Positions 1 through 19,362 of a stretch of DNA of 64,000 nt are shown here, in pieces. Both the position numbers and the translations under genes were made by a program. The stretch spans positions 5,382 through 69,381 of the forward strand of contig CAIRNR010000007.1 of NCBI GenBank assembly GCA_903879985.1, given 5' to 3'. Origin of the DNA: an uncultured candidate division WWE3 bacterium. GTDB taxonomy: Bacteria; Patescibacteriota; WWE3; UBA101185; UBA10185. Within the stretch, counting starts at the first letter, position 1. The number at the start of each line of letters is the position of its first letter. The notes beneath the pieces are model-generated. The model had not been told where the DNA came from, searched no databases, and saw nothing but the letters and a program-made list of their open reading frames with translations.

Positions 1-15
1 GGCCACAATAAAGGT

Positions 16-996
16 TTAACTAATAAAATTAAACAAATAACCTATCAGCATTACTCCAACTAAAGTAATCACCAAAAAAACAGCTAAAAGTTGCCAACGC
101 ATAACCTTTTTAAGAATCATCAATTCAGGAAAAGACACAGTAACTATTGCCGTCATAAAAGCCAAAGCCGTACCAAGTGGAACACCTTTTTGAACAAGAG
201 CTTCCATAATCGGAATTACGCTTACGGAATTCGCATAAAATGGCGCACCAAGCAATGTAGCAACAGGAACAGCCCACCATGTTCGCATGGATAAATACTT
301 TTCAACCAATGCTGCAGGAACAAAACCGTGAATTAATGCGCCTACTCCAACGCCTAAAATTACATAAGGAAAAACACTTTTTGTAATTGTCATGCCATCG
401 GACCAAAAATACTTTAATAACTCTACTTTGGATAATGCAACTCCCCCATTATCAAACTCAAGCTGTTGCTTAGACTTAAACTTTAATAACTCCGGTTTAA
501 CATACTTATCAAGGTGAAGTTTATGAATTAGCATCCCACCTAACATTGCTACTAAAATTCCTAACAAATTATAAATGATTGTTACTTTTAACCCAAACAT
601 TGCAGGAAATAAATAAAGTGAGGACTCATTTACCAGAGGTGAACTTATTAGAAATGCAAAAGTAACTCCTAAAGGTATACCGGCACCAACAAAACCAATA
701 AATAACGGTATTGAGGAGCACGAACAAAAAGGTGTTACCACACCAAGTAATGCAGCGAATAAATAATCTAGTCCAAACCAACGACGCTTTGCCAAAATGT
801 CCCTAACTTTTTCCATAGGAAAGTAATAGCGCGTTATAGCCATAACATAGTTGATTACGATTAAAAGTAAACCAATCTTAATGACATCATATATAAAAAA
901 GTTGAGAGTATCGCCAAGGTAAGAATTTTCAGTTAAATTAAACCACTTATATGTTACTAAGTCGGAAAAAAGTTGTAGAGGCTTAAAAATATCCAT
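16..996 (-). CDS. multi-TM permease with paired CxC motifs (COG0701/DUF318-like 'predicted permease')
   Basis: 326 aa, strongly hydrophobic throughout, with a 'CSCSS' motif. ATG at 996 was checked. It is the last gene of an arsR / thioredoxin-like / permease operon. Confidence 0.55.
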   Translation of the reverse strand: MDIFKPLQLFSDLVTYKWFNLTENSYLGDTLNFFIYDVIKIGLLLIVINYVMAITRYYFPMEKVRDILAKRRWFGLDYLFAALLGVVTPFCSCSSIPLFIGFVGAGIPLGVTFAFLISSPLVNESSLYLFPAMFGLKVTIIYNLLGILVAMLGGMLIHKLHLDKYVKPELLKFKSKQQLEFDNGGVALSKVELLKYFWSDGMTITKSVFPYVILGVGVGALIHGFVPAALVEKYLSMRTWWAVPVATLLGAPFYANSVSVIPIMEALVQKGVPLGTALAFMTAIVTVSFPELMILKKVMRWQLLAVFLVITLVGVMLIGYLFNFIS

Positions 997-999
997 GAA

Positions 1000-1296
1000 T
1001 TAACAACAACTTCCGCCACCGCAACTACAAGAAGATTTTTGTTCTGTAACTAAAGCACCAAATAAAATTGATTTCTTAATCTTTTCTATATCCTGGGAAC
1101 CACCGATCATGACAGGTTTTCCATTTACTGTTAAAACCGGACTGGTCATTATTCCCATTTCGATAATTTTTGTAACATCGGTTATATATTCCAACTCGAC
1201 ATCATCTTTAAGAGTCAGTTCTGTTATAGCCTGCTTTGTTAACTCAAATAATTTTTTACATGTAGGACAACCTGAACCTAAAACTTGAATATACAT
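1000..1296 (-). CDS. thioredoxin-fold redox-active disulfide protein (Thioredoxin_3-like)
   Basis: 98 aa with a 'GCPTCKK' CxxC motif near the N-terminus and a C-terminal Cys-rich tail 'SCSCGGGSCC'. It lies 3 nt upstream of the permease gene. Confidence 0.7.
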   Translation of the reverse strand: MYIQVLGSGCPTCKKLFELTKQAITELTLKDDVELEYITDVTKIIEMGIMTSPVLTVNGKPVMIGGSQDIEKIKKSILFGALVTEQKSSCSCGGGSCC

Positions 1297-1310
1297 AAAA
1301 CTCCTTAAAA

Positions 1311-1622
1311 TTAATACAACTCAAATAGCAAGTCAGTAACCTTTTTACCTTTAGCAGTCAACGAATAGTAAACGTATAACCCACGTTTTTCATCAGAAAC
1401 CATATCAATGTCTTTTAAATCTTTTAGGTGATGCGAAATTAAACTTTGAGATAGTTCCAGATGTTCCATAATTTCACAAACACAATGATCACCAGCACGC
1501 AATATACAAAGAATTTTTAGGCGGCTTTCTTCGCTCACAATTTTTAATAATGCTGTAATTGTAGCTACTTGTTGTGATTCTTTAGACGATTGTTCGCAGC
1601 AACTGCATGAACTCATGTTCAT
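1311..1622 (-). CDS. ArsR/SmtB family metalloregulator
   Basis: 103 aa. 'RLKILCILRAGDHCVCEIMEHLELSQSLISHHLKDLK' matches the ArsR HTH with the metal-binding CVC motif. Confidence 0.75.
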   Translation of the reverse strand: MNMSSCSCCEQSSKESQQVATITALLKIVSEESRLKILCILRAGDHCVCEIMEHLELSQSLISHHLKDLKDIDMVSDEKRGLYVYYSLTAKGKKVTDLLFELY

Positions 1623-1740
1623 ATAGTATGTCGTCGGTAGAAGGAAGTCAATGGGAAATGGTTGAATTTTTTTGGGGTCGGTAGTGGAGGCTAATCTAAA
1701 CCAATTGGTTGATGTTTTGGTGATGTTTCAAAAAATTGAC

Positions 1741-1792
1741 TTCGCAAAAGAAAAGGCACCCTTATTTTTGTAAGAGTGCCTTATTTGGATGC
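1741..1792 (-). terminator. rho-independent terminator candidate downstream of the GC-rich gene
   Basis: An AAGGCAC...GTGCCTT hairpin, followed on the minus strand by TTTTCTTTTGCG. Confidence 0.45.
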
Positions 1793-1801
1793 ATATCTGA
1801 A

Positions 1802-2830
1802 TTACATGTGAATCATGCTTTCCAGTTTTACGCCAGATATTACCTTTCCGTTATTGATATCCCGTGCCTCGTTGCCTTGTCTGGCCTGTAGCACATAGGT
1901 ATCAGCCCTGATAAGTTGTCCCTCACGCCCAGTATCTCCTTCCAAAATCACACATTCGATGTATTCCTTTTGAAGGTTTTTTTCAGGGTCAGCGAGAAGG
2001 ACCAGCAGAACGTTATCCGCTCGTAAGAAAGCCGGTGTAGCCATTTTTAAGCCCCCCTCAACTTTCCACCAAACCTTCCGAGCCATGACGCCGATCTTTT
2101 CGGTACAGTCTTTGTTGCTAATCCAAACAACACCAACTGGATCGTGTTCACCAACATCGTCAAAGAAGACCGGTCCTTTGCCATAGGCATTGGCGATGAA
2201 GTTCAACAGCCCGTCGGGATCATCAGTAACGAAATCCCAATGTGCTGCAACATCATGCGGACCATCTGGGAACCATTGATGCTCACGATAAGTTCCATCT
2301 TCCATAGGGAAGTATGTACGATTGTGATCGCCCGGTACGTCTCTTATCATACCGTTTTCACGAGCTGCGCAGTTGACCCTATATGTTTCTTCATCGGGAA
2401 AACGCACGCCGACATGGTGAAGTTTGAGCGACTTTACCTCGCGATCATAAAGCGTCAGCAAAGCAAGCAGGCGATCGTGTTCTTGCGCCATTTTGCTTAC
2501 AGCAACGATCGTCCCGTTCAGTGCAACGCCGCCCATCCAATGAAGGCTCAGCTCATTGCTTTCGACTGGAGTCATCACGAGCTTTCCATCAAGACCAGCT
2601 CCTGCAAGGACCAGTTCGCCCATTTTACAGTAAGCTACATGCGGTGCGCGCGAAGTATTTCCTTCCGAAACGATACCCGCCCAGCCACCAAAAGCGACCA
2701 TATCACGGTCGGCTTCGACTGAGGCGACAACCACATAGGCGAAAATTCCCATTGCCTTGCACAGTTGTGCAGCAAATTCGTGGTTATCGTGGATACTCAT
2801 TACAGTATCAGCAGCATCTTCGTAATCCAT
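1802..2830 (-). CDS. hypothetical protein with atypical GC (likely start at internal Met 'MDYEDAAD', RBS AAAGGAGATGAAACA)
   Basis: The ORF is 1802..2950. An AAAGGAG Shine-Dalgarno sits in front of the ATG at 2830. The segment is clearly GC-richer than its neighbours. I recognise no family. Confidence 0.5.
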   Translation of the reverse strand: MDYEDAADTVMSIHDNHEFAAQLCKAMGIFAYVVVASVEADRDMVAFGGWAGIVSEGNTSRAPHVAYCKMGELVLAGAGLDGKLVMTPVESNELSLHWMGGVALNGTIVAVSKMAQEHDRLLALLTLYDREVKSLKLHHVGVRFPDEETYRVNCAARENGMIRDVPGDHNRTYFPMEDGTYREHQWFPDGPHDVAAHWDFVTDDPDGLLNFIANAYGKGPVFFDDVGEHDPVGVVWISNKDCTEKIGVMARKVWWKVEGGLKMATPAFLRADNVLLVLLADPEKNLQKEYIECVILEGDTGREGQLIRADTYVLQARQGNEARDINNGKVISGVKLESMIHM

Positions 2831-3033
2831 TGTTTCATCTCCTTTTTGATGATTGATTATTCCGCAAAATATTTGTTGCGGTTTTGGATAGCTAATATGC
2901 ACAATTATAAGTGAAAATAGCTTTTTGGTCAAACTATAGGATAACTGCACACAACAGTGTAGCTTCTAGGTAAAACTCTTCGGATCGATTATTCGTTTGG
3001 GTATACTGAAAAAGTTTCGATGTAACAATCTAA

Positions 3034-3150
3034 ATTACTTGGGGTGGCTTCCTAACAAAGTTTAGAACTGCAATTGAGGAAAACATTAACTACATTCCCA
3101 AATATCCAGAGTTTGAAGATGTAGCCATTTTGAACAAGAGATTTATATAA
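3034..3150 (+). pseudogene. copy 1 of orphaned 3' fragment of the serine-recombinase gene (…ITWGGFLTKFRTAIEENINYIPKYPEFEDVAILNKRFI*), begins at att core TTGGGGTGGC
   Basis: About 105 bp, roughly 90% identical to 4888..5004. The substitutions are synonymous or conservative in the + frame. There is no start codon. The core matches the antisense 3' end of tRNA-His. Confidence 0.7.
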
Positions 3151-3279
3151 CATTGTTCTTGTAACGCTGAAAACCACTGCAGTAACAGGCTTTTACTTAT
3201 AAATAATTTTTGATACAATGACGAAGTCAAATAACTTGAGCTGGAATGCTCTAAACCTAGTAGATAAAGGAGAAATACA

Positions 3280-3420
3280 ATGTCCAAAAATGGTCCTGAC
3301 GATGATGAAGATGAGGACACCCCAGATCCCGAAGACAACGACGCTGATGGTATCGGTGATGACGGTCAAGACGACTCGGGCGACGATGACAGTGACGACA
3401 GCGATACCGACGATCAATAA
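3280..3420 (+). CDS. 46-aa extremely acidic (poly-Asp/Glu) mini-protein
   Basis: A perfect AAAGGAG RBS sits 8 nt upstream of the ATG. The product is MSKNGPDDDEDEDTPDPEDNDADGIGDDGQDDSGDDDSDDSDTDDQ*. It is followed directly by a strong terminator. It is absent from the ORF track because it is shorter than 60 aa. Confidence 0.55.
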   Translation: MSKNGPDDDEDEDTPDPEDNDADGIGDDGQDDSGDDDSDDSDTDDQ

Positions 3421-4793: not shown

Positions 4794-4887
4794 ATTGCTA
4801 TGATAACACTATTTAGTATGCTTATCCTTTATGTTAGTTCTAACCTTGATTTGGGGTAATTAGTTTTATGTTGATGTGACAATTTAG

Positions 4888-5004
4888 ATATTTTGGGGTG
4901 GCTTCTTAACAAAGTTTAGAACTGCTATTGAGGAAAACATTAACTACATTCCCAAATATCCAGAGTTTGAAGATGTAAGCATTTTGAGCAAACGCTTTAT
5001 TTAG
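4888..5004 (+). pseudogene. copy 2 of orphaned 3' fragment of the serine-recombinase gene (…IFWGGFLTKFRTAIEENINYIPKYPEFEDVSILSKRFI*), begins at att core TTTGGGGTGGC
   Basis: The 11-bp core is identical to 17392..17402 inside the tRNA-His 3' end. The reading frame continues the serine recombinase ORF exactly (…SIWGG|FLTKF…). Confidence 0.7.
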
Positions 5005-5185
5005 TCTTTTCCGCTCCTATCTTCTTATTAAGCTCTTTTCGCTGTTCTGGTGTCATAGCTATAAATCTATCTATCATAAAATTAGCCAACTTATACATAT
5101 GCTCAACAGTTTTTACGATTTGTTCATCAGACATGCCTTTTGCAGTATCTCCAAGTATTGATTTAGCCTTTTCTAGCGTTACCAT
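4997..5185 (-). CDS. small hypothetical protein (62 aa; alternative start at Met18)
   Basis: The ORF is open, but there is no clear RBS. It overlaps the next small gene by 23 nt. Confidence 0.3.
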   Translation of the reverse strand: MVTLEKAKSILGDTAKGMSDEQIVKTVEHMYKLANFMIDRFIAMTPEQRKELNKKIGAEKTK

Positions 5186-5340
5186 CTGTTTCTTTCTTTT
5201 GAATTGGTTTGGTAATAACCTTCATAAAGTTAAAAAGTCTGTTTGCTTTATCAAAGGCTTCTGCGTCACTAAGCTCAACTCCAACCTCTTTTTTATAAAT
5301 CTGCTTAAATTCATCTATCGCTTCTTTTGGTAGTGTCATA
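5163..5340 (-). CDS. small (~59 aa) protein, paralogue of 14027..14218 (shared '…F(K)xxYxKxxGVEL(S/T)xxExxxKANxLxNF…')
   Basis: The start is placed at the internal Met 'MTLPKEAIDEF'. It aligns with the 63-aa product at the other end of the element. Confidence 0.45.
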
Positions 5341-5418
5341 CATAAAATAATACCCTCATAATGGCACTTCTGGTATATAATCCTGCTTAGGTATAGCAAA
5401 ATTAGGATAAATATAAAG

Positions 5419-6834
5419 ATGATAACTAAGACAGACTTTTTAGCTTATATAGACGCACCACGCCACTTTTGGGCTTTAAAAAACAATAAGTATGACCTAA
5501 CCCTATCCGATTTTGATAAACACCTGATAGAACAAGGCTACATAGTAGAAACTAAGGCGAGGGAATACGCTCAAAGATATCTGTTACCCAATTATTCAAC
5601 TGATGAAACTGACTTAGTTTTTCAAAGAGCTTGTGAAGACGGTGAATTTCAAGCTAGGTCTGATATTTTGATTAGAAACTCAACTACTAATAAATGGGAT
5701 ATTTACGAAGTAAAAAGTGTAACCAAACCTGAACCAGAGCATTATTATGACGCATGTTTCCAAACAATCATCTTTGAAGAGAACTTGGATATTGCAAATG
5801 TTTTTATCCTGCATGTGAACAATGACTATATACGAGAAGGTGATTTTGACTTGGGTTTGTTTATAAAAACAGAAGATGTAACTCAAAAAGTGAAAGAGTT
5901 AAAGGAAGACACCTTGAATAAAATGAAGGATTGCCTGTTTTTAGTTAGTACAGATAACTATAAACTCGCTACAGAGTGCTTCAAACCTAAGGAATGCCAC
6001 TGCAAAGAGCTTTGCTTTCCTAACCTACCAGCAGATTCAATCTACAATCTATCAAGAATTACAGAAAAGAAGATTTTAGAACTACGAGATAACGACATTT
6101 TGAATATAACCGATATACCTGATGACTTTAGTCTAACTTCAAACCAAAGGGTACAGGTGGCGGTAGCCAAAAGAAACGAAATACTTATAAATAAACAAGC
6201 CATTAAAAATGATTTAGAAGCACTCACCTACCCTCTATATTTTCTTGACTATGAAACCTACCCCTCTGCAATTCCAATGTATGACGGGTATAAACCTTAT
6301 CAACATATGGTGTTTCAATACTCACTACATATTTTAAAAAACCCAGACGATAAAGAGCTACAACACTACGAGTATGTTGTAACAACGCAAAATGAACCGT
6401 GCAAAGAGCTTCTAACACACATGAAACAGCATATTGGGGAAACAGGCAGTGTAATTGTTTGGTATAAACCATTTGAATGTTCCAGAAACAAAGAGATGGC
6501 AGAACTATGCCCAGACTTTGCTGATTTTATGGAATCGGTTAACGACAGGGTATACGACCTAATGGACATATTTAAAAATAACTATTATGTAGACCCAAAG
6601 TTTAAGGGCAGTAACTCAATTAAAGATGTTTTGCCTGTTTTAGTTCCAGAACTCAACTACAAAGCCTTAGATATTCAAAGTGGCACAATGGCAATGACTG
6701 GTTGGTACGAGATAGTTTATGAGAATAAAGACCAAGTAGAAAAAGATAAAATACTAAAAAATCTTTTAACTTATTGTGAGCAAGATACTTTAGCGATGGT
6801 AAAAATTTTGGAGTTTCTGACCAAGTTGGCATAG
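5419..6834 (+). CDS. two-domain nuclease: N-terminal Cas4/RecB-like PD-(D/E)xK domain + C-terminal DEDDy-type 3'-5' exonuclease-like domain (DUF2779-like architecture)
   Basis: The N-terminal part has 'DILIRN…WDIYEVKSV' (D…EVK) followed by a Cys cluster 'CFKPKECHCKELC'. The C-terminal part has 'LDYET', 'DLMD' and 'YCEQD', which match the ExoI/II/III motifs. Confidence 0.55.
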   Translation: MITKTDFLAYIDAPRHFWALKNNKYDLTLSDFDKHLIEQGYIVETKAREYAQRYLLPNYSTDETDLVFQRACEDGEFQARSDILIRNSTTNKWDIYEVKSVTKPEPEHYYDACFQTIIFEENLDIANVFILHVNNDYIREGDFDLGLFIKTEDVTQKVKELKEDTLNKMKDCLFLVSTDNYKLATECFKPKECHCKELCFPNLPADSIYNLSRITEKKILELRDNDILNITDIPDDFSLTSNQRVQVAVAKRNEILINKQAIKNDLEALTYPLYFLDYETYPSAIPMYDGYKPYQHMVFQYSLHILKNPDDKELQHYEYVVTTQNEPCKELLTHMKQHIGETGSVIVWYKPFECSRNKEMAELCPDFADFMESVNDRVYDLMDIFKNNYYVDPKFKGSNSIKDVLPVLVPELNYKALDIQSGTMAMTGWYEIVYENKDQVEKDKILKNLLTYCEQDTLAMVKILEFLTKLA

Positions 6835-6902
6835 TTACCAATACTAAGGCTTTTCTAAAAACTATTAGACTTGTAGAATGTTAATGGAGTTATTATATAA
6901 AT

Positions 6903-9257
6903 ATGAACACTATAAAGATTAAGCAATATCTTGATAAACAACAAATAAAGGTTGTAGAACTATACGATTTTGAAAACAAGAAGGTAAGGTATTCAGAAAA
7001 AATCAAGGGTTGGAAAATTGATAAATTCAGAGGTGATGAGGAAATAGTACGAGCTTACATTTTAGCTAAGCTAGTTAACGAACTAGGCTACAAACCAGAA
7101 AACATTGAGCTTGAGAAAGAATACGATATTGGCAGACCTAAAGTAAATAAACCCCGAATTGATATTATTGTTAGAGACGATAACGGAAACGCTTTTCTGT
7201 ATATAGAGCTAAAAAGCCCCCTAGATTACGAAAAAGACAAAGACGAGGTAATAGAAAAACAACTATTTAACCTAGCGTCACAAGAACAAGGTCAAGGCAG
7301 AAAAGTAAAATACTTAACACTATATTCAGTAGAAATTGTTAATGACGAAATAAAAGATAAAACAATCCTTATTGATTATGAAAAATTTAACTCCTTTGAC
7401 CAATGGAAAGAGATACGAAATTATGCAGATGAACTACCAATACGCTACGGAAAAGCCCAGAAAGAACCTTATGTAAAGGGCGGAAAGAAAGATTTAGATA
7501 GCAATTTTTCTCATACACAGCTAGATGCTTTGCGAAAAAATTTACATAATGTACTTTGGGGTGGTGGTGGAACAGACGACAATGATGTATTTTCCTCACT
7601 GGTTAATATAATTCTTGCAAAAATCCAAGATGAGAGTGAGAAAAAAGTTAGTGAAGTTTATGATTTCCAAATCAGGTCATATCAAGACGGCGACAGCTTT
7701 GAGAGCAATGACCAACTATTTGACAGAATAAATGCACTATATAGGAGAGCCTTACACGATAGACTTAATGTTGATGGAGCTAAAATAGCCAAGTCTTACA
7801 TAATTGACGAAAATAAATTTTCTCTTAACAAATTAAAGTACACAGTTTCAGAGCTTGAGAGATTATCATTTGTTGAAGGAAAAAATCAACTTACTGGAAA
7901 AGACATTTTAGGAGACTTTTTTGAGGGCATAATTAGAGAAGGATTCAAACAAAGCAAAGGACAGTTTTTTACGCACATCAATGTAGTTAAGTTTATTCTT
8001 TGGGGGTTACAACTGGATAAATTAGCTACAGAAAAGGTAAATAAGGAGCAAGAATTACCTTATATTATAGACCCAAGTGCAGGTAGTGGGACTTTCCTTA
8101 TTGAGTACATGAAGTACATTACTCAAAATATAAAATACCGATTTAAGAACAAGCTAGATACTTCATATAATATCCAGAAAAAACTTCAATCATGGTTTTA
8201 CCCTGATAATTTTGAGAACAAATGGGCAGAGCAATACATATACGGTAGTGATATTAACTTTAATCTAGGTACAGCTACAAAAGTTAACATGATACTACAT
8301 GGCGATGGTTCAGCTAATGTATTTGTGAAAGACGGATTATTGCCTTTTAACTTCTATAAGAATTTATTAGCGGATAGCACACCAGATAATACCTACTATG
8401 ATAAAGATGTAAACGGTAAATTTGATGTAATAATAACCAATCCGCCATTTAGTGTTGACTTAGATAACGATACAAAGAAAAGTGTAAAAAAAGACTTTAT
8501 ATTTGGGGATAAGAAAAATTCAGAAAACCTATTTATTGAAAGATACTACCAACTACTTAAACCTAACGGTAGGTTTGGAATAGTATTACCCGAAAGTGTA
8601 TTTGATACTACGGAAAATAAGTATATCCGCTTATTTATATACAAATACTTCAAAATTAAGGCAATAGTCTCACTACCTCAATCCACATTTGAGCCTTTTA
8701 CTAGTACAAAAACCAGTCTATTGTTTGCTCAAAAGAAAACTAAAGCAGAGATACAAGAATGGGATAGCCTTTGGACAAAGTATTCAAATGAGTGGAATAC
8801 TCTGAAAACTAGGGCTAATAATCTAGTGGACACATACACAAGTGAGAAGGATAGAAATAAACTAACTTCTATTAGAGACCTTAACGAAGGCGAAGAAAAA
8901 GAGATTCTTAATAAAATACTCAAAAACTACATAGAAAAAGAAGATGCTAACCTTACACCTAAAGCACTTGTTGAAAAGTATGAAGGTGAATTAAAAGAGC
9001 TTTGTAAATACGATGCTGACACAAAAGAAGCCTATGGCTTTGTAAATACTTGGTGGGTATTTGGAGAGGTTTCAAAAGAACTAAATTATAAAATTCTTAT
9101 GACAGAGATAGCTAATGTCGGTTACAAGAGAAGTAAAAGAGGCGAAAAGCCTATGCCAAACGAGTTGTTTAGAGAAGATGATAAAGGACAGGTTTTAGTA
9201 GATGACGGGATACTAGAAACAGCTTTAGACTATCTTAGAAATTTAGAGTGGGAATAG
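6903..9257 (+). CDS. BcgI-like type IIB restriction-modification A subunit: N-terminal PD-ExK endonuclease domain fused to gamma-class N6-adenine DNA methyltransferase
   Basis: 784 aa. The N-terminus has 'IDIIVRD…FLYIELKSP' (D…ELK). Methyltransferase motif I 'DPSAGSGTFL' precedes motif IV 'IITNPPFS'. A specificity-subunit gene follows. Confidence 0.75.
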   Translation: MNTIKIKQYLDKQQIKVVELYDFENKKVRYSEKIKGWKIDKFRGDEEIVRAYILAKLVNELGYKPENIELEKEYDIGRPKVNKPRIDIIVRDDNGNAFLYIELKSPLDYEKDKDEVIEKQLFNLASQEQGQGRKVKYLTLYSVEIVNDEIKDKTILIDYEKFNSFDQWKEIRNYADELPIRYGKAQKEPYVKGGKKDLDSNFSHTQLDALRKNLHNVLWGGGGTDDNDVFSSLVNIILAKIQDESEKKVSEVYDFQIRSYQDGDSFESNDQLFDRINALYRRALHDRLNVDGAKIAKSYIIDENKFSLNKLKYTVSELERLSFVEGKNQLTGKDILGDFFEGIIREGFKQSKGQFFTHINVVKFILWGLQLDKLATEKVNKEQELPYIIDPSAGSGTFLIEYMKYITQNIKYRFKNKLDTSYNIQKKLQSWFYPDNFENKWAEQYIYGSDINFNLGTATKVNMILHGDGSANVFVKDGLLPFNFYKNLLADSTPDNTYYDKDVNGKFDVIITNPPFSVDLDNDTKKSVKKDFIFGDKKNSENLFIERYYQLLKPNGRFGIVLPESVFDTTENKYIRLFIYKYFKIKAIVSLPQSTFEPFTSTKTSLLFAQKKTKAEIQEWDSLWTKYSNEWNTLKTRANNLVDTYTSEKDRNKLTSIRDLNEGEEKEILNKILKNYIEKEDANLTPKALVEKYEGELKELCKYDADTKEAYGFVNTWWVFGEVSKELNYKILMTEIANVGYKRSKRGEKPMPNELFREDDKGQVLVDDGILETALDYLRNLEWE

Positions 9258-9258
9258 T

Positions 9259-10653
9259 ATGGCACTGAAACAGTTTACAACTGATTTTAAAAGCATCGGT
9301 AACCAAGAGTTTCTAAGACCAAATGTCGGCTATAGATACTTTTTTGATATTAAAAAATCAATGGTATTTAAAAACCCGATAACTACCCAATTGAAATACA
9401 TATTAAAACCATTACTTTCAAATAAAATTCCAAAGGGTGAATTGGATAGTAGAGAAATTCTAGTTGATTTGGCAAACATTGAAAGAAGATACAACTCACT
9501 AGTAAACCTAGAGGAAGTTAATCAGATTGGCTCGGACAAAAATATACTAAACTTCGGCGATATAGTAATACCTAAGATTCAACCACAAATGGGTAACATT
9601 TTTCTTAATACCGACCATACTAGGTATGTAGCTTCAACGGAGTTGCTTGAATACACGGTATGCCAAGACCATAACCCAGTATTTGTTTACTACTTAATAA
9701 CTTCCAAACAATTTCTAGCTGACCTTGAGAGGCTTGAGGGTGGAAAAACACACAGGAGAGTAAATCCCACAGACCTTTTAAAAATAAGAATACCTACCCT
9801 TAGTAAAAGACACCAAGACCAAGTAGTTACCGAAATTGAGCCAATAGCCATAAAAATTCAGGCACTTAAAACGGATATTAAACCACAACAAGAAATTATA
9901 GATAAAGTTTTTGTACGGGAATTTAAATTTAATAAAGCAAATTTTGACCAACTATCAAAAATTAAAATGTATGAAACTACTTTTTCAGAGTTCGCAAATA
10001 ACATAGATGTTCGCTATAGCGTCAAATTCCATAGAAATGCTGGTGCATTTGTCTTAGCGGAATTAAAGAAAGTAACTAACAAAAAGATTAAACACTTCAT
10101 TGCAGAACCAATTGTATTGGGTACTAGTGTATCCCCTTCGGATTACGACGAAAACGGCGATTATTACTACATATCAATGGCAAATATAAAGAACTGGAAA
10201 TTTGAAAACGATGACGCAAAACTTGTTTCAAATGAGTATTCAAAGAAAAACCAGAATAAAACAATAGCTTTAAACGATATTTTAATTGCCCGTTCTGGTG
10301 AGGGAACAATTGGGAAAGTTGCTTTAATAGAAGATGAGGAACTACTGGGCATTTTTGCGGACTTTACAATGAGAATTAAGTTAAAAGACTATAACCCAAC
10401 ATTTGCCTACTACTATTTTAGAACAACTTACTTTCAATACCTGATTGAAATTAACAAGAAAGGTTTAGGCAATAACACAAACATCTTCCCAAGCCAAATT
10501 CAAGAACTCCCCATGATGGATATTCCATTAGCTAGACAAGAAAAAATAGTTCAAGAGATTAAAAAAGAGCTAGAAGAACAAAATGTTATTAGAAGTTCTA
10601 TAGAGCAAGAAAGAGCAAAGATTGATGAAATTATTGAGAAGGCAATACAATGA
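9259..10653 (+). CDS. restriction-modification specificity (S/B) subunit with two target-recognition domains
   Basis: 464 aa. There are HsdS-type conserved spacers 'IRIPTLSKRHQDQVVTEIE' and 'IPLARQEKIVQEIKKELEEQ'. The start overlaps the stop of the upstream gene. Confidence 0.75.
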   Translation: MALKQFTTDFKSIGNQEFLRPNVGYRYFFDIKKSMVFKNPITTQLKYILKPLLSNKIPKGELDSREILVDLANIERRYNSLVNLEEVNQIGSDKNILNFGDIVIPKIQPQMGNIFLNTDHTRYVASTELLEYTVCQDHNPVFVYYLITSKQFLADLERLEGGKTHRRVNPTDLLKIRIPTLSKRHQDQVVTEIEPIAIKIQALKTDIKPQQEIIDKVFVREFKFNKANFDQLSKIKMYETTFSEFANNIDVRYSVKFHRNAGAFVLAELKKVTNKKIKHFIAEPIVLGTSVSPSDYDENGDYYYISMANIKNWKFENDDAKLVSNEYSKKNQNKTIALNDILIARSGEGTIGKVALIEDEELLGIFADFTMRIKLKDYNPTFAYYYFRTTYFQYLIEINKKGLGNNTNIFPSQIQELPMMDIPLARQEKIVQEIKKELEEQNVIRSSIEQERAKIDEIIEKAIQ

Positions 10654-11378
10654 ACAAATTTAAAACATCAGCTATAACCATACTCACCGAAACAGGTAAA
10701 CCCCTACACTATAAGGAAATAACCCGTCTAGCACTTGATAAAGGAATTTTAGTTACTGATGGTGCAACTCCTGACGCTTCAATGAACGCCCAAATAGTAA
10801 TGGATATAAAACAAAACGGTAAACTCTCAAATTTTATTAAGACAGAGCCTTCCACCTATGGTTTAAACCCAAATATACAAAAAGCTGTTAATGAGCCAGA
10901 GGAAGACATAGCGCAAGAGGAAAAACAAGCCGTAGATAGCGGTTATATCGGAAAAGCAGGAGAATACATAGTGTGCAGTGAACTGCTTTTTAGAGGATTT
11001 AATGCCAGTATTATGAGTGTTGATACAGGTGTTGATATTGTAGCTACCAAAGAAAGCCGACTGTATGGCGTACAAGTAAAGACTGCAAGACTTAATAAGT
11101 TCAATACTTATGTTTTTGATGTTCGCAAGGTTTCATTTGAGAGACACAGTAGTGGTAGTACATTTTATATTTTTGTTCTATATAGCGAGAAGAAAACTAA
11201 TTTTCTGATTCTCCCCTATTTTGAAATTGAAAAGAAAGTACATGACAAAGTTATACTAGAAGTTGGTCACGGACTACGCTACAGAATAAACATTAAACTG
11301 CGTAATGACAGCGTATATCTTGGAACTTTAGACAATGAGATGAACTACTTTTTGAATAATTGGGCGGTGCTAAAGTAA
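10650..11378 (+). CDS. Mrr-like restriction endonuclease (HARE-HTH/Mrr_N winged helix + Mrr-type PD-(D/E)xK catalytic domain)
   Basis: The N-terminal 'GKPLHYKEITRLALDKGILVTDGATPDASMNAQIV' fits HARE-HTH. The C-terminal 'GEYIVCSELL…VDTGVDIVATK…YGVQVKT' fits the Mrr_cat D-x-G-x-D…QxK pattern. There is an ATGA overlap with the S subunit. Confidence 0.55.
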   Translation: MNKFKTSAITILTETGKPLHYKEITRLALDKGILVTDGATPDASMNAQIVMDIKQNGKLSNFIKTEPSTYGLNPNIQKAVNEPEEDIAQEEKQAVDSGYIGKAGEYIVCSELLFRGFNASIMSVDTGVDIVATKESRLYGVQVKTARLNKFNTYVFDVRKVSFERHSSGSTFYIFVLYSEKKTNFLILPYFEIEKKVHDKVILEVGHGLRYRINIKLRNDSVYLGTLDNEMNYFLNNWAVLK

Positions 11379-11496
11379 ACAACTTATTTAGGTAAAAACT
11401 ATCCCCGTATGACAACAAATAAATAGATTGACTTATAAAATTGCGGTATAATAGCCGTATTCCTGCCTATGTTAGTTAACGAATATAAATATAAAA

Positions 11497-12681
11497 ATGA
11501 CAAAAAGACAATTTACAATATCGCACTTTGTGCAGAATATAAACATAGACTTGCTAGAGGCTTATTTTAATCAAGCTAATTTACCTTTCCCAAACAATTT
11601 AAAAACTACAGACAAAGACAAAAAACCAAATGCTCAAGATATTGAAACGCTTATAAACTCACTTGAGACTAAAGCTCAAGAAAAAATAAACAACGATTTC
11701 ATAGATATTAACGAGCTGTCCTATGACGGCGGTATTCTTTCAATTATTGATGTTGGAAATGTTTACAACATCAATTTAACCGAAGAACTAAGTAGCCTTG
11801 AAGATAACACGAACCAAGCACTTTACTGCTTTCTAAACCATAAAGGGGTATTTGAAAACGCCTCAAAAATAGCTTACTTTGAAAGACTTTCATCAAAAAC
11901 TGTTAGAAACGATATGGTTAAAAAGACAGCACAAGAAGTCTCAAATGAAGAAGTTAAAAATGCCTTAGAAACCGAACTTAAAACATATTTTAAACAAAAA
12001 GACGGTAGAGGCGAAAATTGTAAAATTGATGTTACAATCTACAAAAATAGAGTGTTTTATCGTGCGTATCCTCAAAACTATTCCCAGTTTTTATTTGATT
12101 ACGATGAAGAAGGTAAATACAGACGAAGTGTAGTTAAACCTGTCTTTGAGGTTATTTTTATCTATTATCCAGACGATGGTAGATTAGAACTTAGTGTTAA
12201 CTTTAGAAATAAACGCAGACGAGAGCTAATTGAAATTTTTAGCCGAATTGTTCTAAAAGATGACCGCACGATTAAAGACGAACTGCAAACTTACGATTTT
12301 GACAGGATAGTTTCTCCTGATTTTACTATGCCCACTAAACTTGAAGATAAAGTATCTTGGGCTTACCTAAAGCAATTAAGACTAAGCTACAGATATACTA
12401 CTGCAAGAAAAATTACACTTGAAGTTGATGACAAAAATACCGATGGAGCTAAAGCAATTCACGAAATGATTAAAGAGTATGGGCTTAATACCGAACAATT
12501 GTTTGTAACTCAAGCAACTTTCAAGATTAAGTTTGAAGGAGCAGGTAATAAGGGTAGCGTCACAGCTATGATTACATATCCCGACAAGTGTAACCTATCG
12601 GACATTGCAACACACCAATTGGCTAAAGATTATATAAAATACTGGAAATTGGAGTTATCAGATAATGAAGGAAATAACTAA
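11497..12681 (+). CDS. hypothetical protein (394 aa), no recognisable motifs
   Basis: A long ORF with a perfect TATAAT at 11447..11452 upstream. It overlaps the next gene by 17 nt. Confidence 0.5.
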   Translation: MTKRQFTISHFVQNINIDLLEAYFNQANLPFPNNLKTTDKDKKPNAQDIETLINSLETKAQEKINNDFIDINELSYDGGILSIIDVGNVYNINLTEELSSLEDNTNQALYCFLNHKGVFENASKIAYFERLSSKTVRNDMVKKTAQEVSNEEVKNALETELKTYFKQKDGRGENCKIDVTIYKNRVFYRAYPQNYSQFLFDYDEEGKYRRSVVKPVFEVIFIYYPDDGRLELSVNFRNKRRRELIEIFSRIVLKDDRTIKDELQTYDFDRIVSPDFTMPTKLEDKVSWAYLKQLRLSYRYTTARKITLEVDDKNTDGAKAIHEMIKEYGLNTEQLFVTQATFKIKFEGAGNKGSVTAMITYPDKCNLSDIATHQLAKDYIKYWKLELSDNEGNN

Positions 12682-13600
12682 TTTCGCCAATTATTTAGCG
12701 GTAAACCAAGATACTAGCTTTTCAGAAAGTATTTTGAAAGTAAATCTACCAACAATTTTCCAAACACTAGTAGATAGAGGCATTTTAGCCCCTACAACAC
12801 CCGTAGATAGCGTGAGGTGCAAAGAATGTGACTTAGACCACCTAGAACAAGTAATTGAAGTAAACCACCGATACTTTACAAAATGCGAATACAGCGAAGA
12901 CGCCTCGTTATCAGAAGTTCAACTAGACGAACTAAATGGCTATCGCTTTAGTTTGAGTGCTTTACTGGCTTGGATAGCAGAAACCTTAGTAACGCAAACC
13001 GACATTAAACAATTGAATGATGCTACTTGGGGTATAGGCAAAAAGGCTACACAGAACATTTATTTTATTAAATCAATTGACCAGAAAGAAGCTCAAAACG
13101 AAGTAAAGAAAATTAACACCGAAAATAACATATTTCTATGGTTGGGAGTAAATTCACCTGTTGGGTATTCAACAACCGAACTAGTATCAATACAGGAAGT
13201 AATTAAAATTAGTAGTAAAGGCTTGGAAGTTCAAGCTATTAAAGTTAAATCTAAAAAAGCTAAACCAAACCAGAAAGATATTGTCTTAGATAAAGATATT
13301 GTAATAACAAACAATTTCTATCTTCTACTTAACCTTGAAAACGGTGCTTTTAATTATAAGGTAAAAACATTACCACAAACATATAGAATAGTTAGATACC
13401 TGTATGACCAAAGAAAATATGGTAAAGCGTATACCTCTAAAGAGCTAAGCGAAGCTCTACAATTGGATAATCCAAAGGTTATTCCAACCAGAATAAAAGA
13501 ACTAAACAACAAATGTGAGGAACATAAAGTCAAAAGTATTGTACTCACATACCCAAATAATACATGGGCATTAAACCCAGATTTAACTTGTTTTAATTAA
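12665..13600 (+). CDS. hypothetical protein (311 aa), possible C-terminal winged-helix
   Basis: GGAG sits 10 nt upstream of the ATG. The gene is translationally coupled to 11497..12681. 'YRIVRYLYDQRKYGKAYTSKELSEAL' looks wHTH-like. Confidence 0.5.
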   Translation: MKEITNFANYLAVNQDTSFSESILKVNLPTIFQTLVDRGILAPTTPVDSVRCKECDLDHLEQVIEVNHRYFTKCEYSEDASLSEVQLDELNGYRFSLSALLAWIAETLVTQTDIKQLNDATWGIGKKATQNIYFIKSIDQKEAQNEVKKINTENNIFLWLGVNSPVGYSTTELVSIQEVIKISSKGLEVQAIKVKSKKAKPNQKDIVLDKDIVITNNFYLLLNLENGAFNYKVKTLPQTYRIVRYLYDQRKYGKAYTSKELSEALQLDNPKVIPTRIKELNNKCEEHKVKSIVLTYPNNTWALNPDLTCFN

Positions 13601-13674
13601 GGTCACTAAAGTAGTCACAAAATCATAATGTGACTTAACATTTCCATAAATAAGAAAAATATAGATGTAGTAAT

Positions 13675-13706
13675 AGAGCCATATAGTAAGGCTCTTTTTT
13701 GTTTTT
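13675..13706 (+). terminator. rho-independent terminator after the 311-aa gene
   Basis: An AGAGCC…GGCTCT hairpin followed by TTTTTTGTTTTT. Confidence 0.6.
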
Positions 13707-13773
13707 ACCTAAAAACTTGACAGAGCATTTTTGTGACCAATATCACTAACGCATAGAAAGTTCAAAGATAAAC

Positions 13774-14037
13774 ATGAAAGAAAATAAAGATTTATTTACA
13801 ACATATAACCTAAACTTTTCGGCAGTTCTTATAGCTAGTGGCATTAAGTTACAAGGAGTTAATAACGGGCTTGGGTCTAAGTCTCTCTTTTGTTTTGAAA
13901 ATTCTCTAAAAATACAGGATATAAACGACAAGTATTGGAGAAAAGAATTAAAGATTGAACCTCAATTACTCTTTGATAGCTTGAAATTCCTTAAAAACAG
14001 ATTGTATAGCGGTTTGGAGAATAACGATGGTTTCTAG
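13774..14037 (+). CDS. small hypothetical protein (87 aa)
   Basis: The ORF is preceded by a TTGACA -35-like hexamer at ~13717. It overlaps the next gene by 11 nt. Confidence 0.4.
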   Translation: MKENKDLFTTYNLNFSAVLIASGIKLQGVNNGLGSKSLFCFENSLKIQDINDKYWRKELKIEPQLLFDSLKFLKNRLYSGLENNDGF

Positions 14038-14218
14038 AGAAGGCTTAGTGAAATTTAAAGAACTTTACGCCAAGCGTTATGGAGTTGAACTTACTGAAAA
14101 GGAAGTCTCCGAAAAAGCTAACCAATTACTTAATTTCTATCGGGCAGTTTTTAGAGAACCAACAAATATAAAAATAAATATAACCTATGAGCAAAAAATA
14201 CGAAGTAAGAAAAATTAA
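14027..14218 (+). CDS. small protein (63 aa), paralogue of 5163..5340
   Basis: Shares the conserved 'YxKRYGVELTEKEVSEKANQLLNF' block with the protein at the other end of the element. Confidence 0.45.
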   Translation: MVSREGLVKFKELYAKRYGVELTEKEVSEKANQLLNFYRAVFREPTNIKINITYEQKIRSKKN

Positions 14219-14603
14219 AACAAAAAGGTCTTACACCTTTAAAGAAATAGCAGATTTGTTTGATGTCCATGTACGCACTATTCAAGCATGGCATGTAGAC
14301 GGATTAGTAACTCTTGAAGGTAGTAACAATCCATATCTAGTTATGGGTATTGATGTACAAAACTATATTAAACAGCAAAAACAAAAGCACAAAGTAGCTC
14401 TTAAAGAAAATGAGTTTTACTGCATAAGCTGTAGAAAAGCTGTTACCCCAACAGAAGTTTTTTCAAATTCAAATGGTATCAAAATGGGTGGTAATAAACA
14501 GTCGGTTATATTGAGCGGTGTTTGCCCAACTTGTAACCGAAAAGTGAACCGATTTACAACAAACGAACAGTCTATTTTAGAGGGGAAAAGCAATACTATA
14601 TAG
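14187..14603 (+). CDS. HTH + C-terminal zinc-ribbon protein (excisionase/recombination-directionality-factor or regulator candidate)
   Basis: 'YTFKEIADLFDVHVRTIQAWHVDGL' is MerR/Xis-like HTH. It also carries CxxC…CxxC ('CISCRK…CPTCNRK'). It lies immediately upstream of the two recombinase genes. Confidence 0.45.
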   Translation: MSKKYEVRKIKTKRSYTFKEIADLFDVHVRTIQAWHVDGLVTLEGSNNPYLVMGIDVQNYIKQQKQKHKVALKENEFYCISCRKAVTPTEVFSNSNGIKMGGNKQSVILSGVCPTCNRKVNRFTTNEQSILEGKSNTI

Positions 14604-14659
14604 GCACTAGAATATCCCTTTGAAGACTGACATTAGTAATTAGTTATTTAGGAAACAAT

Positions 14660-15745
14660 ATGAACAAATATAAAACGAAAAATGAAAAGATAAAGAGAAG
14701 ATATTTTAAATGGTTAAAAGATGCCGAAGGTTTTGCACCTGCTACCATTGAAAGCATTGAAAAAGCCTTATGGGATTACGAAGCATTTAGCCAAGAAGAT
14801 GACTACGCAAATTTTAACGACAAGATGGCTCAAGGGTTTAAAAAATGGCTCTCGGAAAAAAAGCTACAAAGTGGTGAAACCATCAACCTTTCAACTCAAT
14901 ACGATAGGCTTAGACACCTTAAAAAGTTTTTTACTTGGTTATCTGGACAGGTTGGTTATAAATCAAAAGTTGACCCCTACGATGCAAATTATCTACGCCT
15001 TGATAAAAAATTGGCAAAAATTGCAACTGCACCTAAAGTTGAGGATTACCCAACACTTGAGTATGTTAAAAAGCTATGTGATTCAATTGAAATTAAAAGC
15101 GAAATTGACCAAAGGGATAGAGCTTTAATTGCATTCACATTGTTAAGCGGTATGCGAGATAAAGCTATAATCACACTTCCACTTGGTTGCTTTAATCCTG
15201 AAACTTATCAAGTAAAACAATATCCTTCCGAAGGTGTGCAAACCAAGTTCTCTAAAACTATTGATACGGTCTTGTTTCAATTTGATGAGAAGCTATTAAG
15301 CTATATTGTTGATTGGGTTAAACACTTAAAAGAAAATAAAGTATTTGGTATTACTGACCCCTTGTTTCCATCAACTAAAATTGAGCAAATGTCTAAGACT
15401 GAATACATATTTGAGGCTAAAGGTGTTGAACCTATATTTTGGCGTTCAACAAGCACAATGTGCAAGATATTTGAGGAAAGAGCTAAGTTTGCTGAACTTA
15501 AATACTATTCACCTCATAAGTTCCGCCATTCTGCTACTAGATTGGCTACGGACAGTTGCAAAAGTGCCGAGCAAATTAAAGCTGTAAGTCAAAACTTGGG
15601 TCATGAGCATGTGAGTACAACGCTTTTAACCTACGGAAGACTTACACCTTATAGAGTGCGTGATGTTGTGACCGAGCTAAATTTCAAGAAAACAGAACGA
15701 GACGAAAAGATTGAGGAAATTAAAAAACTAATGTCACAGATATAA
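14660..15745 (+). CDS. tyrosine-type site-specific recombinase/integrase
   Basis: 361 aa. The C-terminal catalytic signature is 'FRHSATRL…LGHEHVSTTLLTYGRL' (R…HxxR…H…Y). The N-terminal part is a SAM-like core-binding region. Confidence 0.85.
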   Translation: MNKYKTKNEKIKRRYFKWLKDAEGFAPATIESIEKALWDYEAFSQEDDYANFNDKMAQGFKKWLSEKKLQSGETINLSTQYDRLRHLKKFFTWLSGQVGYKSKVDPYDANYLRLDKKLAKIATAPKVEDYPTLEYVKKLCDSIEIKSEIDQRDRALIAFTLLSGMRDKAIITLPLGCFNPETYQVKQYPSEGVQTKFSKTIDTVLFQFDEKLLSYIVDWVKHLKENKVFGITDPLFPSTKIEQMSKTEYIFEAKGVEPIFWRSTSTMCKIFEERAKFAELKYYSPHKFRHSATRLATDSCKSAEQIKAVSQNLGHEHVSTTLLTYGRLTPYRVRDVVTELNFKKTERDEKIEEIKKLMSQI

Positions 15746-15791
15746 TATAATTAACTTGATACTATAAACTTATAATTGTAAGGTTATTGTA

Positions 15792-17471
<1,680 letters not shown>

Positions 17472-17571
17472 ATAATAACCCTGCCATTATATCAGCAATG
17501 CGGATACGTCGCTAGGACGACTAAACAGCAATGCTGATGCGTCGCTAAGCCATGTAGCCACCAACGGCAAC

Positions 17572-19146: not shown

Positions 19147-19221
19147 GGCCCCATCGTCTAACGGTTAGGACATCAGGTTTTCATCCTGGTAATCGGAGTC
19201 CGACTCTCCGTGGGGTCACCA
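19147..19221 (+). tRNA. tRNA-Glu (TTC)
   Basis: Acceptor GGCCCCA/TGGGGTC, anticodon stem TCAGG/CCTGG with loop TTTTCAT, and an encoded ACCA. Confidence 0.8.
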
Positions 19222-19343: not shown

Positions 19344-19362
19344 ACTCTCCGTGGGGTCACCA
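19344..19362 (+). repeat. 19-bp direct repeat of the tRNA-Glu 3' end (ACTCTCCGTGGGGTCACCA), 122 bp downstream of the tRNA
   Basis: Exact duplicate of 19203..19221. The intervening 122 bp holds a 9-bp perfect inverted repeat CATGGACAA/TTGTCCATG. Confidence 0.7.

Follow-up and report, generated by a model that had tools for sequence, protein, structure and literature searches.

What is the role of two overlapping genes that stand between restriction–modification (R-M) genes and the recombination module of a small mobile island? The question is raised by a 64,000-nucleotide stretch of DNA from an uncultured candidate division WWE3 bacterium (assembly GCA_903879985.1, contig CAIRNR010000007.1, positions 5,382 to 69,381 of the forward strand). 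We refer to the whole of this stretch as the window and use its own numbering throughout. The genes, here called A (11497–12681, plus strand, 394 amino acids) and B (12665–13600, plus strand, 311 amino acids), had been put forward in a preliminary description as a candidate novel defence module. We find that they are a new, widespread and unannotated two-gene module at the cargo edge of mobile islands. Our preferred reading, held tentatively, is that A and B form a DNA-binding complex that is part of the backbone of a tRNA-integrating island, which it would regulate or maintain, and that the pair lies outside the exchangeable defence cargo. Part of the earlier proposal holds, in that the pair is a coupled, self-contained unit of unknown function on an R-M-bearing mobile island; defence is not its likeliest role.

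Both reading frames open with ATG and, as read from the sequence, they overlap by 17 nucleotides (B start codon at 12665–12667, A stop codon TAA at 12679–12681). A GGAG ribosome-binding site for B lies on the plus strand within the 3′ end of A (12651–12654), 10 nucleotides upstream of the B start. This layout had been described correctly, as had the lack of any recognizable motif. Neither protein has an above-threshold match in Pfam, NCBIfam or PADLOC, and neither contains a Walker A motif or a membrane segment. For A, no Pfam match was obtained at E ≤ 0.1, the RdgC family (PF04381) included, and profile searches of PDB sequences with A and with B returned no match. The only library match is that of A, over its full length, to phrog_37634 (E = 1e-25), a family of unknown function. 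A match to F-actin_cap_A (E = 1.5e-4) was sub-threshold and was treated as noise; CapZ appeared only very weakly in the fold search described below. The preliminary description had also proposed a PADLOC search, which gave no match for either protein. When PADLOC-DB v2.0.0 was applied to 36 diverse A, B and fusion sequences, no model was matched consistently, and the sole matches were one to mad1, a 60-position helix-turn-helix (HTH)-type profile, and one chance match to Cas6.

Both open reading frames (ORFs) are nevertheless real genes, with full-length homologues at 26–70% identity for A and 32–59% for B. A word-indexed search recovered 19 clusters for A and four to five for B, whereas an exhaustive HMMER search with the A profile recovered 1,747 representative clusters (defined at 50% identity) at E ≤ 1e-3, 439 of them at E ≤ 1e-30. 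Nearly all members of the A family are full length (380–430 amino acids), and they occur in mobile elements of Saccharibacteria, Planctomycetota, Gammaproteobacteria and other bacteria. No Pfam domain was found in any of eight sampled members, and for the 20 members that were looked up in cluster tables the source name was "hypothetical protein" only. Searches by tblastn with A gave no match among phage records and a single match among plasmids, the latter solely with the distant family member P0100 as query. Broad alignments of the family contain no conserved stretch suited to locus retrieval.

The pairing of A with B is obligate. Each locus was found by searching with A, and in every readable one a B-family gene lies directly 3′ of A, its start overlapping the end of A in nearly all cases. 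An iterative jackhmmer search begun from B, run against roughly 2,400 ORFs from 35 loci, converged on the ORFs directly 3′ of A, on the C-terminal halves of both known fusions and on the fused ORF of locus L013, and recruited no decoys. The two natural A::B fusions are P0054 (698 amino acids) and P0073 (687 amino acids). The second half of P0054 resembles the N-terminal module of B, including its CxxC...H...C pattern (hhalign probability 91%, E = 9e-7). Such fusions are Rosetta-stone evidence that A and B act together, presumably as a complex.

The evidence that sets the pair apart from its neighbours comes from the closest homologues, which are found on contigs assigned to Saccharibacteria. 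In about eight island variants from this group the gene order is unchanged and comprises A, the overlapping B, a DUF5659 gene, a small ORF, an HTH/Zn-ribbon gene, a tyrosine integrase and a serine recombinase. Upstream of A the content differs from island to island. The window has a DUF2779 gene, a methylase with a specificity subunit and a HARE-HTH/PD-(D/E)XK gene. Loci L001 and L002 have DUF2779 and type III Mod/Res genes, in opposite orientations between the two loci, and L008 has GmrSD, two C5 methylases (Dcm) and an HNH/MTaX1 gene. At L006 copper-resistance genes occupy the position, and at L005 BacA and Dsb genes. Alignment of the window with related loci by blastn gives two conserved blocks, one at 5034–6880 and the other running from 11413 or 11463 to 17473, that is, from the A promoter to tRNA-His. 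The R-M genes fall in the non-homologous gap between the blocks, and the boundary between variable and conserved DNA lies at the A promoter (11413–11463). Thus all of the related Saccharibacteria islands, as retrieved via A, contain A-B, whereas other genes take the place of its R-M or metal-resistance neighbours.

The neighbours of A-B are those given in the preliminary description, with R-M and Mrr-like genes before the pair and a recombination module after it. The step from this position to defence cargo does not hold, given that the R-M genes are swapped, that A-B stays collinear with the recombinases, that the breakpoint lies at the A promoter and that copper and Dsb genes also occur as neighbours. 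These Dsb (DsbA/thioredoxin) and copper (CopA, CsoR, cupredoxin) modules lie directly 5′ of A-B in L005 (6950–9100), L006 (3855–6270) and L040 (1030–9070); they are homologous despite two different backbones and so behave as non-defence cargo. L005 had been considered as a cargo-free minimal element, a view that we softened since its Dsb genes recur beside A-B in L040 and may be cargo.

The same comparison bears on whether A-B could be an accessory part of the upstream R-M system. In the window the pair does follow the M, S and PD-(D/E)XK genes directly and on the same strand. In other islands the same pair, at 64–69% (A) and 43–48% (B) identity, comes after GmrSD/Dcm/HNH genes, after type III R-M genes of either orientation or after genes unrelated to defence, and it has a separate conserved promoter. 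We reject an R-M accessory role because the R-M type varies between islands, and consider it highly improbable.

Beyond the Saccharibacteria, the pair occupies a comparable junction on other backbones. A replicase gene (Toprim, DUF927, D5 or PrimPol), a tyrosine or serine recombinase gene, or both, lie 3′ of A-B in L010, L011, L013, L014, L028, L029, L039 and L040. One candidate function, that A or B is a recombination directionality factor of the serine recombinase, was rejected, as in L010, L014 and L029 the only recombinases that accompany the pair are tyrosine integrases.

A-B also forms its own transcription unit. The −10 box of its promoter (TATAAT, plus strand, 11447–11452) stands at the start of the block common to related islands, or about 30 nucleotides inside it. 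In a nine-locus alignment the sequence GTATAAT is intact in seven of nine related islands and has one mismatched base in the other two. This promoter is absent from the listing of a consensus promoter scan because its sole −35-like element, TTGACT, lies 13 nucleotides upstream and not 16–18. The unit is closed on the plus strand by an intrinsic-terminator-like hairpin and T-run (13675–13706), with an AGAGCC/GGCTCT stem and a nine-nucleotide loop followed by TTTTTTGTTTTT; the scan missed it because its loop exceeds eight nucleotides. The hairpin is energetically weak (−8.4 kcal/mol, z = −1). Hairpin and T-run are kept in L001, L002, L005 and partly in L019, with differing loop sequences. The conservation of both signals in relatives therefore bears out the earlier view that the genes have their own −10 box and terminator.

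Two stretches of non-coding DNA around the pair may serve as binding sites. The 5′ leader of A (plus strand, 11463–11496) consists of CTGCCTATGTTA (11463–11474) and a AATAAAWATAAAWATG-type region before the start codon, and its CTGCCYATG sequence and AATAAAWATAAAWATG start region are kept across nine related loci. Here CTGCCTATGTTA is a possible operator. The AATAAAWATAAAWATG-type motif is likewise found in front of two further genes of the island (repeat families D3 and D11). In the spacer between B and DUF5659 (plus strand, 13602–13745), GTCAC/TGTGAC repeats occur just 3′ of the B stop codon (13602–13634) and again (13732–13737) between an invariant TTGACA (13717–13722) and the DUF5659 start. 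Of the 27 TGTGAC sites in the window, three fall inside these 125 nucleotides of the spacer. In combination, the TTGACA and the repeats resemble a promoter with a candidate operator from which the recombination operon that follows would be controlled, and B might bind at the repeats. Separately, three genes, DUF2779, A and the HTH/Zn-ribbon gene, have the AT-rich sequence AAYRAATATAAAWATAAAWAT directly in front of their start codons (5407–5425, 11478–11503 and 14161–14181, respectively). In this comparison, which was confined to island genes, the sequence could represent a common leader or no more than the translation-initiation context of the genome.

The preliminary description had recommended remote-homology searches and structure prediction. 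Profile searches of PDB sequences were null, as stated above; structural models were obtained for both proteins. The model of A (pLDDT 83, pTM 0.56) has an N-terminal helical domain (approximately residues 1–130) followed by alpha/beta domains. When this model was searched against the PDB with Foldseek, no match fell below E = 1e-3. The best-scoring matches were to CENP-N/Chl4, aligned along almost all of A (E = 3e-3, probability 0.9–0.97), and to RdgC (E = 5e-3, probability 0.93–0.96; RdgC and CENP-N together 3–6e-3). RnlA and CapZ were weaker matches. In BFVD, the matches were phage RdgC-type proteins (E = 1e-5 to 1e-3, probability 0.97–1.0). The best matches of A are thus to an RdgC/CENP-N(Chl4)-like DNA-gripping fold, predicted at the level of fold class only. 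RdgC, Iml3/Chl4 and lambda RexA share one DNA-binding fold (PMC11077077).

No typical catalytic constellation is found in A over 155 family members. The residues conserved in this set are R171, G172, C175, D194 (N in the window protein) and P362, together with hydrophobic positions; C365 is conserved at 76%, and L367 is among the family-wide conserved residues. The N-terminal parts of A and B are acidic (isoelectric point about 4.5), and the central domain of A is basic (9.3–9.4).

Among known proteins of this fold class, RdgC (PDB 2OWL and 2OWY) and phage RdgC-type proteins are the best matches of A in two structure libraries. Like A they have no enzymatic signature, and DNA gripping would be expected of both. 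However, A is about 90 amino acids longer, has an extra N-terminal helical domain and shows no sequence or profile similarity to RdgC. It always occurs with a Zn-ribbon/HTH partner and is borne on mobile genetic elements, whereas RdgC is encoded by a solitary chromosomal gene. The inner-kinetochore proteins CENP-N and CENP-L (Chl4/Iml3) combine, as the model of A does, a helical N-terminal domain with RdgC-like domains, and they grip DNA as a heterodimer. These are eukaryotic chromatin proteins, and their likeness to A is one of fold only (9–12% identity, E ~3e-3).

The predicted RdgC-type fold of A, and the occurrence of A-B on many kinds of mobile element, could also point to an establishment or anti-defence function, in which an RdgC-like coat would shield incoming or excised element DNA from RecA and the SOS response or from host nucleases. 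Escherichia coli RdgC binds DNA and thereby inhibits RecA functions (PMC11077077). This idea is speculative and we regard it as quite improbable, since A has no sequence relation to RdgC and general DNA coating needs no sequence-specific partner with a variable HTH.

Protein B is probably a DNA binder, judging from its model (pLDDT 73, built on an alignment of five sequences). An N-terminal module of approximately residues 1–115 combines helices with a beta-hairpin and carries C52-x2-C55...H59...C74, which makes it Zn-ribbon-like. The middle part is basic and beta-rich, and the C-terminus (approximately residues 237–290) is modelled as a three-helix unit that is locally winged-helix-like. The winged-helix matches include LexA (probability 0.93, root-mean-square deviation 1.8 Å over 53 residues) and the DNA-binding domain of AdeR (OmpR-type), with weaker matches to CadC and ScaR; the DtxR-type class is also represented. 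Family-wide, only the N-terminal ~115 residues of the partner are conserved and the C-terminus is variable, with HTH_17 detected in two of 15 B-family partners. The middle and C-terminal parts are both basic (isoelectric point 9.3–9.4). The whole protein of 311 amino acids is modelled as a soluble alpha/beta protein with a winged helix, and its maximum hydropathy over 19 residues is 1.07.

Together with the constant position of the pair in the backbone, a predicted DNA-gripping fold without catalytic residues, a variable DNA-reading end on B and candidate operators at both promoters make the backbone model the best supported of those that we considered. Under this model, A would be a non-enzymatic protein of the RdgC/CENP-N/RexA fold class that grips or encircles duplex DNA. 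B would be the specificity subunit, its Zn-ribbon-like N-terminal module docking onto A and its variable C-terminal (winged) HTH reading element-specific DNA sites. Candidate sites for B lie in the leader at the A promoter and in the GTCAC repeats that overlie the recombination-operon promoter. The A-B complex could then determine whether the element stays integrated or is excised or replicated, as lambda RexA biases the CI/Cro switch. Alternatively, it may organize or protect the DNA of the element. We infer this step from a DNA-binding pair in the backbone to control of switching or maintenance.

Rates of divergence are consistent with such a division of labour. Across five loci, identity to the window protein is 69–85% for the tyrosine integrase, 61–83% for the serine recombinase, 43–69% for A and 36–48% for B, and B from L019, in which A is frameshifted, is 57% identical. 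B is therefore the fastest-evolving gene of the conserved block, as expected of a specificity determinant, and A is among the fastest.

In broad outline, P4-type satellites, tycheposons and similar islands are small elements that sit at tRNA genes, encode recombinases and often a primase-helicase, and have an exchangeable cargo region. A-B may be likened to a conserved gene at the edge of that region. We know of no homologue of A or B in the P4-type satellite or tycheposon families, and the adjacent tyrosine and large serine recombinases and the DUF5659 gene are particular to the Saccharibacteria elements.

Several observations weigh against the backbone model. A regulatory role is proposed from position and fold, and the fold matches of A have low TM-scores (0.22–0.36); these fit a multi-domain protein with a flexible domain arrangement, and the assignment therefore stays at the level of fold class. 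A profile of the A family (31 sequences) gave no hhalign signal against E. coli RdgC (probability 0.1%) or against lambda RexA (0.3%). As the loci were found via A, elements with the same backbone that lack A-B would be invisible. On the plasmid of Candidatus Tenderia and in prophage L038, A-B lies among defence-type genes and no replicase or integrase occurs within ~10 kb on that side. A defence-type gene is directly upstream or adjacent in approximately 12 of 20 distinct contexts, a figure that comes without a background rate, and the fast evolution of A and B would also fit an arms race. Finally, in L009 (491–1676) and L019 (257–1442) a frameshift splits A into ORFs of 213 and 195 amino acids, but B is intact, as is the remainder of the element, which indicates that A is dispensable at least in the short term. 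Both loci carry the same lesion in A and may represent one population.

This decay of A with an intact B is a pattern typical of toxin genes, and so raises the possibility that A-B is an addiction module of the toxin–antitoxin or abortive-infection type that stabilizes the island, with A as a DNA-clamping toxin and B as an autoregulating DNA-binding antitoxin. A translationally coupled bicistronic unit with its own promoter would suit such a module, as would the HTH in one partner, the weak AbiEi_4 match of one B homologue and the presence of RnlA among the weak fold matches of A. Coupled pairs with one HTH partner are also known from AbiE-type (AbiEi/AbiEii) and other two-gene modules of this kind. 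However, A-B lacks a nucleotidyltransferase or toxin domain, no toxin family was matched, and its HTH partner is encoded second with the HTH at the C-terminus. Natural A::B fusions exist, both proteins are large, A has no conserved catalytic residues, and the frameshifted contigs, as noted, may be one population. We therefore consider an addiction module improbable.

The neighbourhood, the rates of divergence and the fold class all bear on a more serious competitor, namely that A-B is itself a new two-protein system of exclusion or phage defence that many mobile elements carry as a fixed payload. A would then sense foreign DNA or replication intermediates in the manner of RexA, and B would be its DNA-binding or effector partner. 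RexA is encoded by a mobile element, has the RdgC/Chl4/Iml3 fold class that A is predicted to have, and shows non-specific DNA binding; besides excluding phages, it biases the lambda switch (PMC11077077). This dual role, in exclusion and in bias of its own switch, makes RexA the closest functional analogy to A-B under the regulatory and the defence readings alike. The defence neighbours include R-M, SNF2/PLD, DUF499/DUF1156, GmrSD, HerA and ubiquitin-like systems, in the roughly 12 of 20 contexts mentioned above, from several phyla and including a plasmid and the accessory region of a prophage. A and B evolve faster than the recombinases, they have their own promoter and terminator, like successful defence genes they remain associated with mobile elements whose backbones are unrelated, and no replicase or integrase is nearby on the plasmid or in the prophage.

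Against exclusion, the constant occupancy of A-B, its fixed position and orientation relative to the backbone and its varying neighbours are the opposite of what is seen for hotspot cargo, and it adjoins copper and Dsb cargo too. Neither protein contains an effector domain of the nuclease, NTPase, membrane or NAD type, no set of catalytic residues is conserved, and the 36 family members gave no consistent PADLOC match. The likeness to RexAB is also incomplete. RexA has no sequence similarity to A, and its chains lie outside the top 50 PDB fold matches; RexB is a small multi-pass membrane protein, in contrast to the soluble Zn-ribbon/HTH protein B, and no RexB-like membrane partner is present. 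The preliminary description had proposed a test of whether the pair co-occurs in defence islands of other genomes. The pair is often beside defence genes and also beside copper and Dsb genes, and no homology to housekeeping or phage structural proteins was found. Constant presence, fixed position and orientation and the non-defence neighbours set A-B apart from hotspot cargo, and we therefore judge an exclusion system possible but rather unlikely. At its most far-reaching, such a reading would make A-B the founding example of a widespread form of two-protein immunity, in which a RexA/RdgC-fold sensor acts with a Zn-ribbon/HTH partner in place of a membrane channel and is a near-universal payload of islands, prophages and plasmids in several phyla, the reduced-genome Saccharibacteria included; we regard this, too, as unlikely.

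The distant loci differ in what surrounds the pair. In L010 (Pirellulales), a SNF2-PLD gene lies upstream and a Toprim-like gene and a tyrosine integrase downstream, and in L011 a 238-amino-acid ORF precedes the pair and D5 primase-helicase, HTH_17 and serine recombinase genes follow it. The A::B fusion of L013 stands between ResIII and DUF5659 with PrimPol. In L014, an IMG/VR contig, DUF499, a DUF1156 methylase and SNF2 are upstream, and Toprim, DUF927 and a tyrosine integrase downstream. L022 has type I R-M genes upstream and an 862-amino-acid protein without assigned function downstream; L028 has HerA upstream and a methylase and PrimPol downstream; and in L029 the contig starts upstream of the pair and a tyrosine integrase follows it. 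Type III R-M, GmrSD and UvrD genes precede A-B in L039, with RepB, ParB, a serine recombinase and a tyrosine integrase beyond it. L040, on a 683-kb contig, has Dsb and copper genes upstream and Toprim_2 and a serine recombinase downstream. In L038, prophage tail-like genes are upstream and a type IIG methylase and SNF2 downstream, and on the Ca. Tenderia plasmid (L015) DUF499 and DUF3800 are upstream and multiubiquitin-JAB-E1 and KfrA downstream.

On this plasmid (Ca. Tenderia electrophaga, CP013100.1, 4862–7309), A-B (genes Tel_16815/Tel_16810) is followed by a multiubiquitin-JAB-ThiF(E1) operon and preceded by a DUF499 ATPase with a partner of ~330 amino acids. The same DUF499 and ~330-amino-acid pair lies beside A-B in the unrelated L014. 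In L016, on contig MTKZ01098444.1, a second element (1–3351) with a Toprim_2 primase and a serine recombinase of 561–573 amino acids is placed in tandem with the A-B island, on its left. Its backbone is ~51% identical to that of L040 (12796–18281 in L040), where a separate A-B pair precedes Toprim_2. A-B is thus carried by at least two element families in Saccharibacteria.

Within the island of the window, the exchangeable cargo occupies 6903–11378 on the plus strand and consists of genes for an N6 methylase with an HSDR_N domain (from 6903), a specificity subunit (from 9259) and a HARE-HTH plus PD-(D/E)XK protein (from 10650). This restriction cargo is unusual in that the methylase is part of a 784-amino-acid protein with an HSDR_N nuclease-like N-terminus, and no HsdR helicase is present in it. 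The methylase and the specificity subunit also match the MADS models mad2 (E = 1e-30) and mad5 (E = 4e-22). To the right of A-B, the conserved block contains on the plus strand the DUF5659 gene (13774–14037), the HTH/Zn-ribbon gene (14187–14603; ~150 amino acids in relatives), the tyrosine integrase (14660–15745) and the large serine recombinase (15792–17459). The block ends at the minus-strand tRNA-His (17394–17470), the right-hand end of the island. The serine recombinase ORF enters this oppositely oriented tRNA gene by 66 nucleotides, so that its last ~20 residues are translated tRNA.

The left-hand end is tentative. No long attachment-site (att) repeat was found at the island ends, only an 11-nucleotide match, TTTGGGGTGGC, at 4892–4902 on the left edge and at 17391–17401 at the 3′ end of tRNA-His (E = 0.4). 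If TTTGGGGTGGC is the att core, for which it is a candidate, the island would span approximately 4892–17470. To the left of the cargo, the second conserved block comprises a DUF2779/RecB-like (UU173-family) gene (5419–6834) and two small minus-strand ORFs (~5000–5345). It also occurs in L001 and L002, and L008 retains a 255-nucleotide remnant only (4894–5147). Further features were noted near these edges. A 131-nucleotide direct repeat (89% identity; 3019–3149 and 4873–5003) flanks a peptidase M16 gene, and a 78-nucleotide core of this repeat matches the 3′ end of the second large serine recombinase gene in L016 (3254–3336). The copy on the left edge of the island starts with TTTGGGGTGGC. Outside the island, the 3′-terminal 19 nucleotides of tRNA-Glu (ACTCTCCGTGGGGTCACCA, 19203–19221) are repeated exactly 141 nucleotides downstream (19344–19362), as might be left behind by a further integration or excision at that tRNA gene.

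We found no relevant literature on DUF5659, "RdgC-like" proteins or Saccharibacteria islands, and for RdgC in the context of phage defence only the RexA structure paper (PMC11077077) was recovered. Mobile elements of the candidate phyla radiation (CPR) are poorly described. Because A-B marks the edge of the cargo, it can serve to locate small tRNA-integrating islands, to define their limits and to pick out the swappable defence and resistance genes in them, in the CPR as elsewhere. It also calls for caution in the mining of defence islands, as adjacency to defence genes can reflect membership of a backbone beside a hotspot. If the pair proves to be a defence system, it would be a new immune system without a classical effector. 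If it is regulatory, as we tentatively prefer, the DNA-gripping fold of RdgC, RexA and kinetochore proteins would gain a role in the control of mobile elements.

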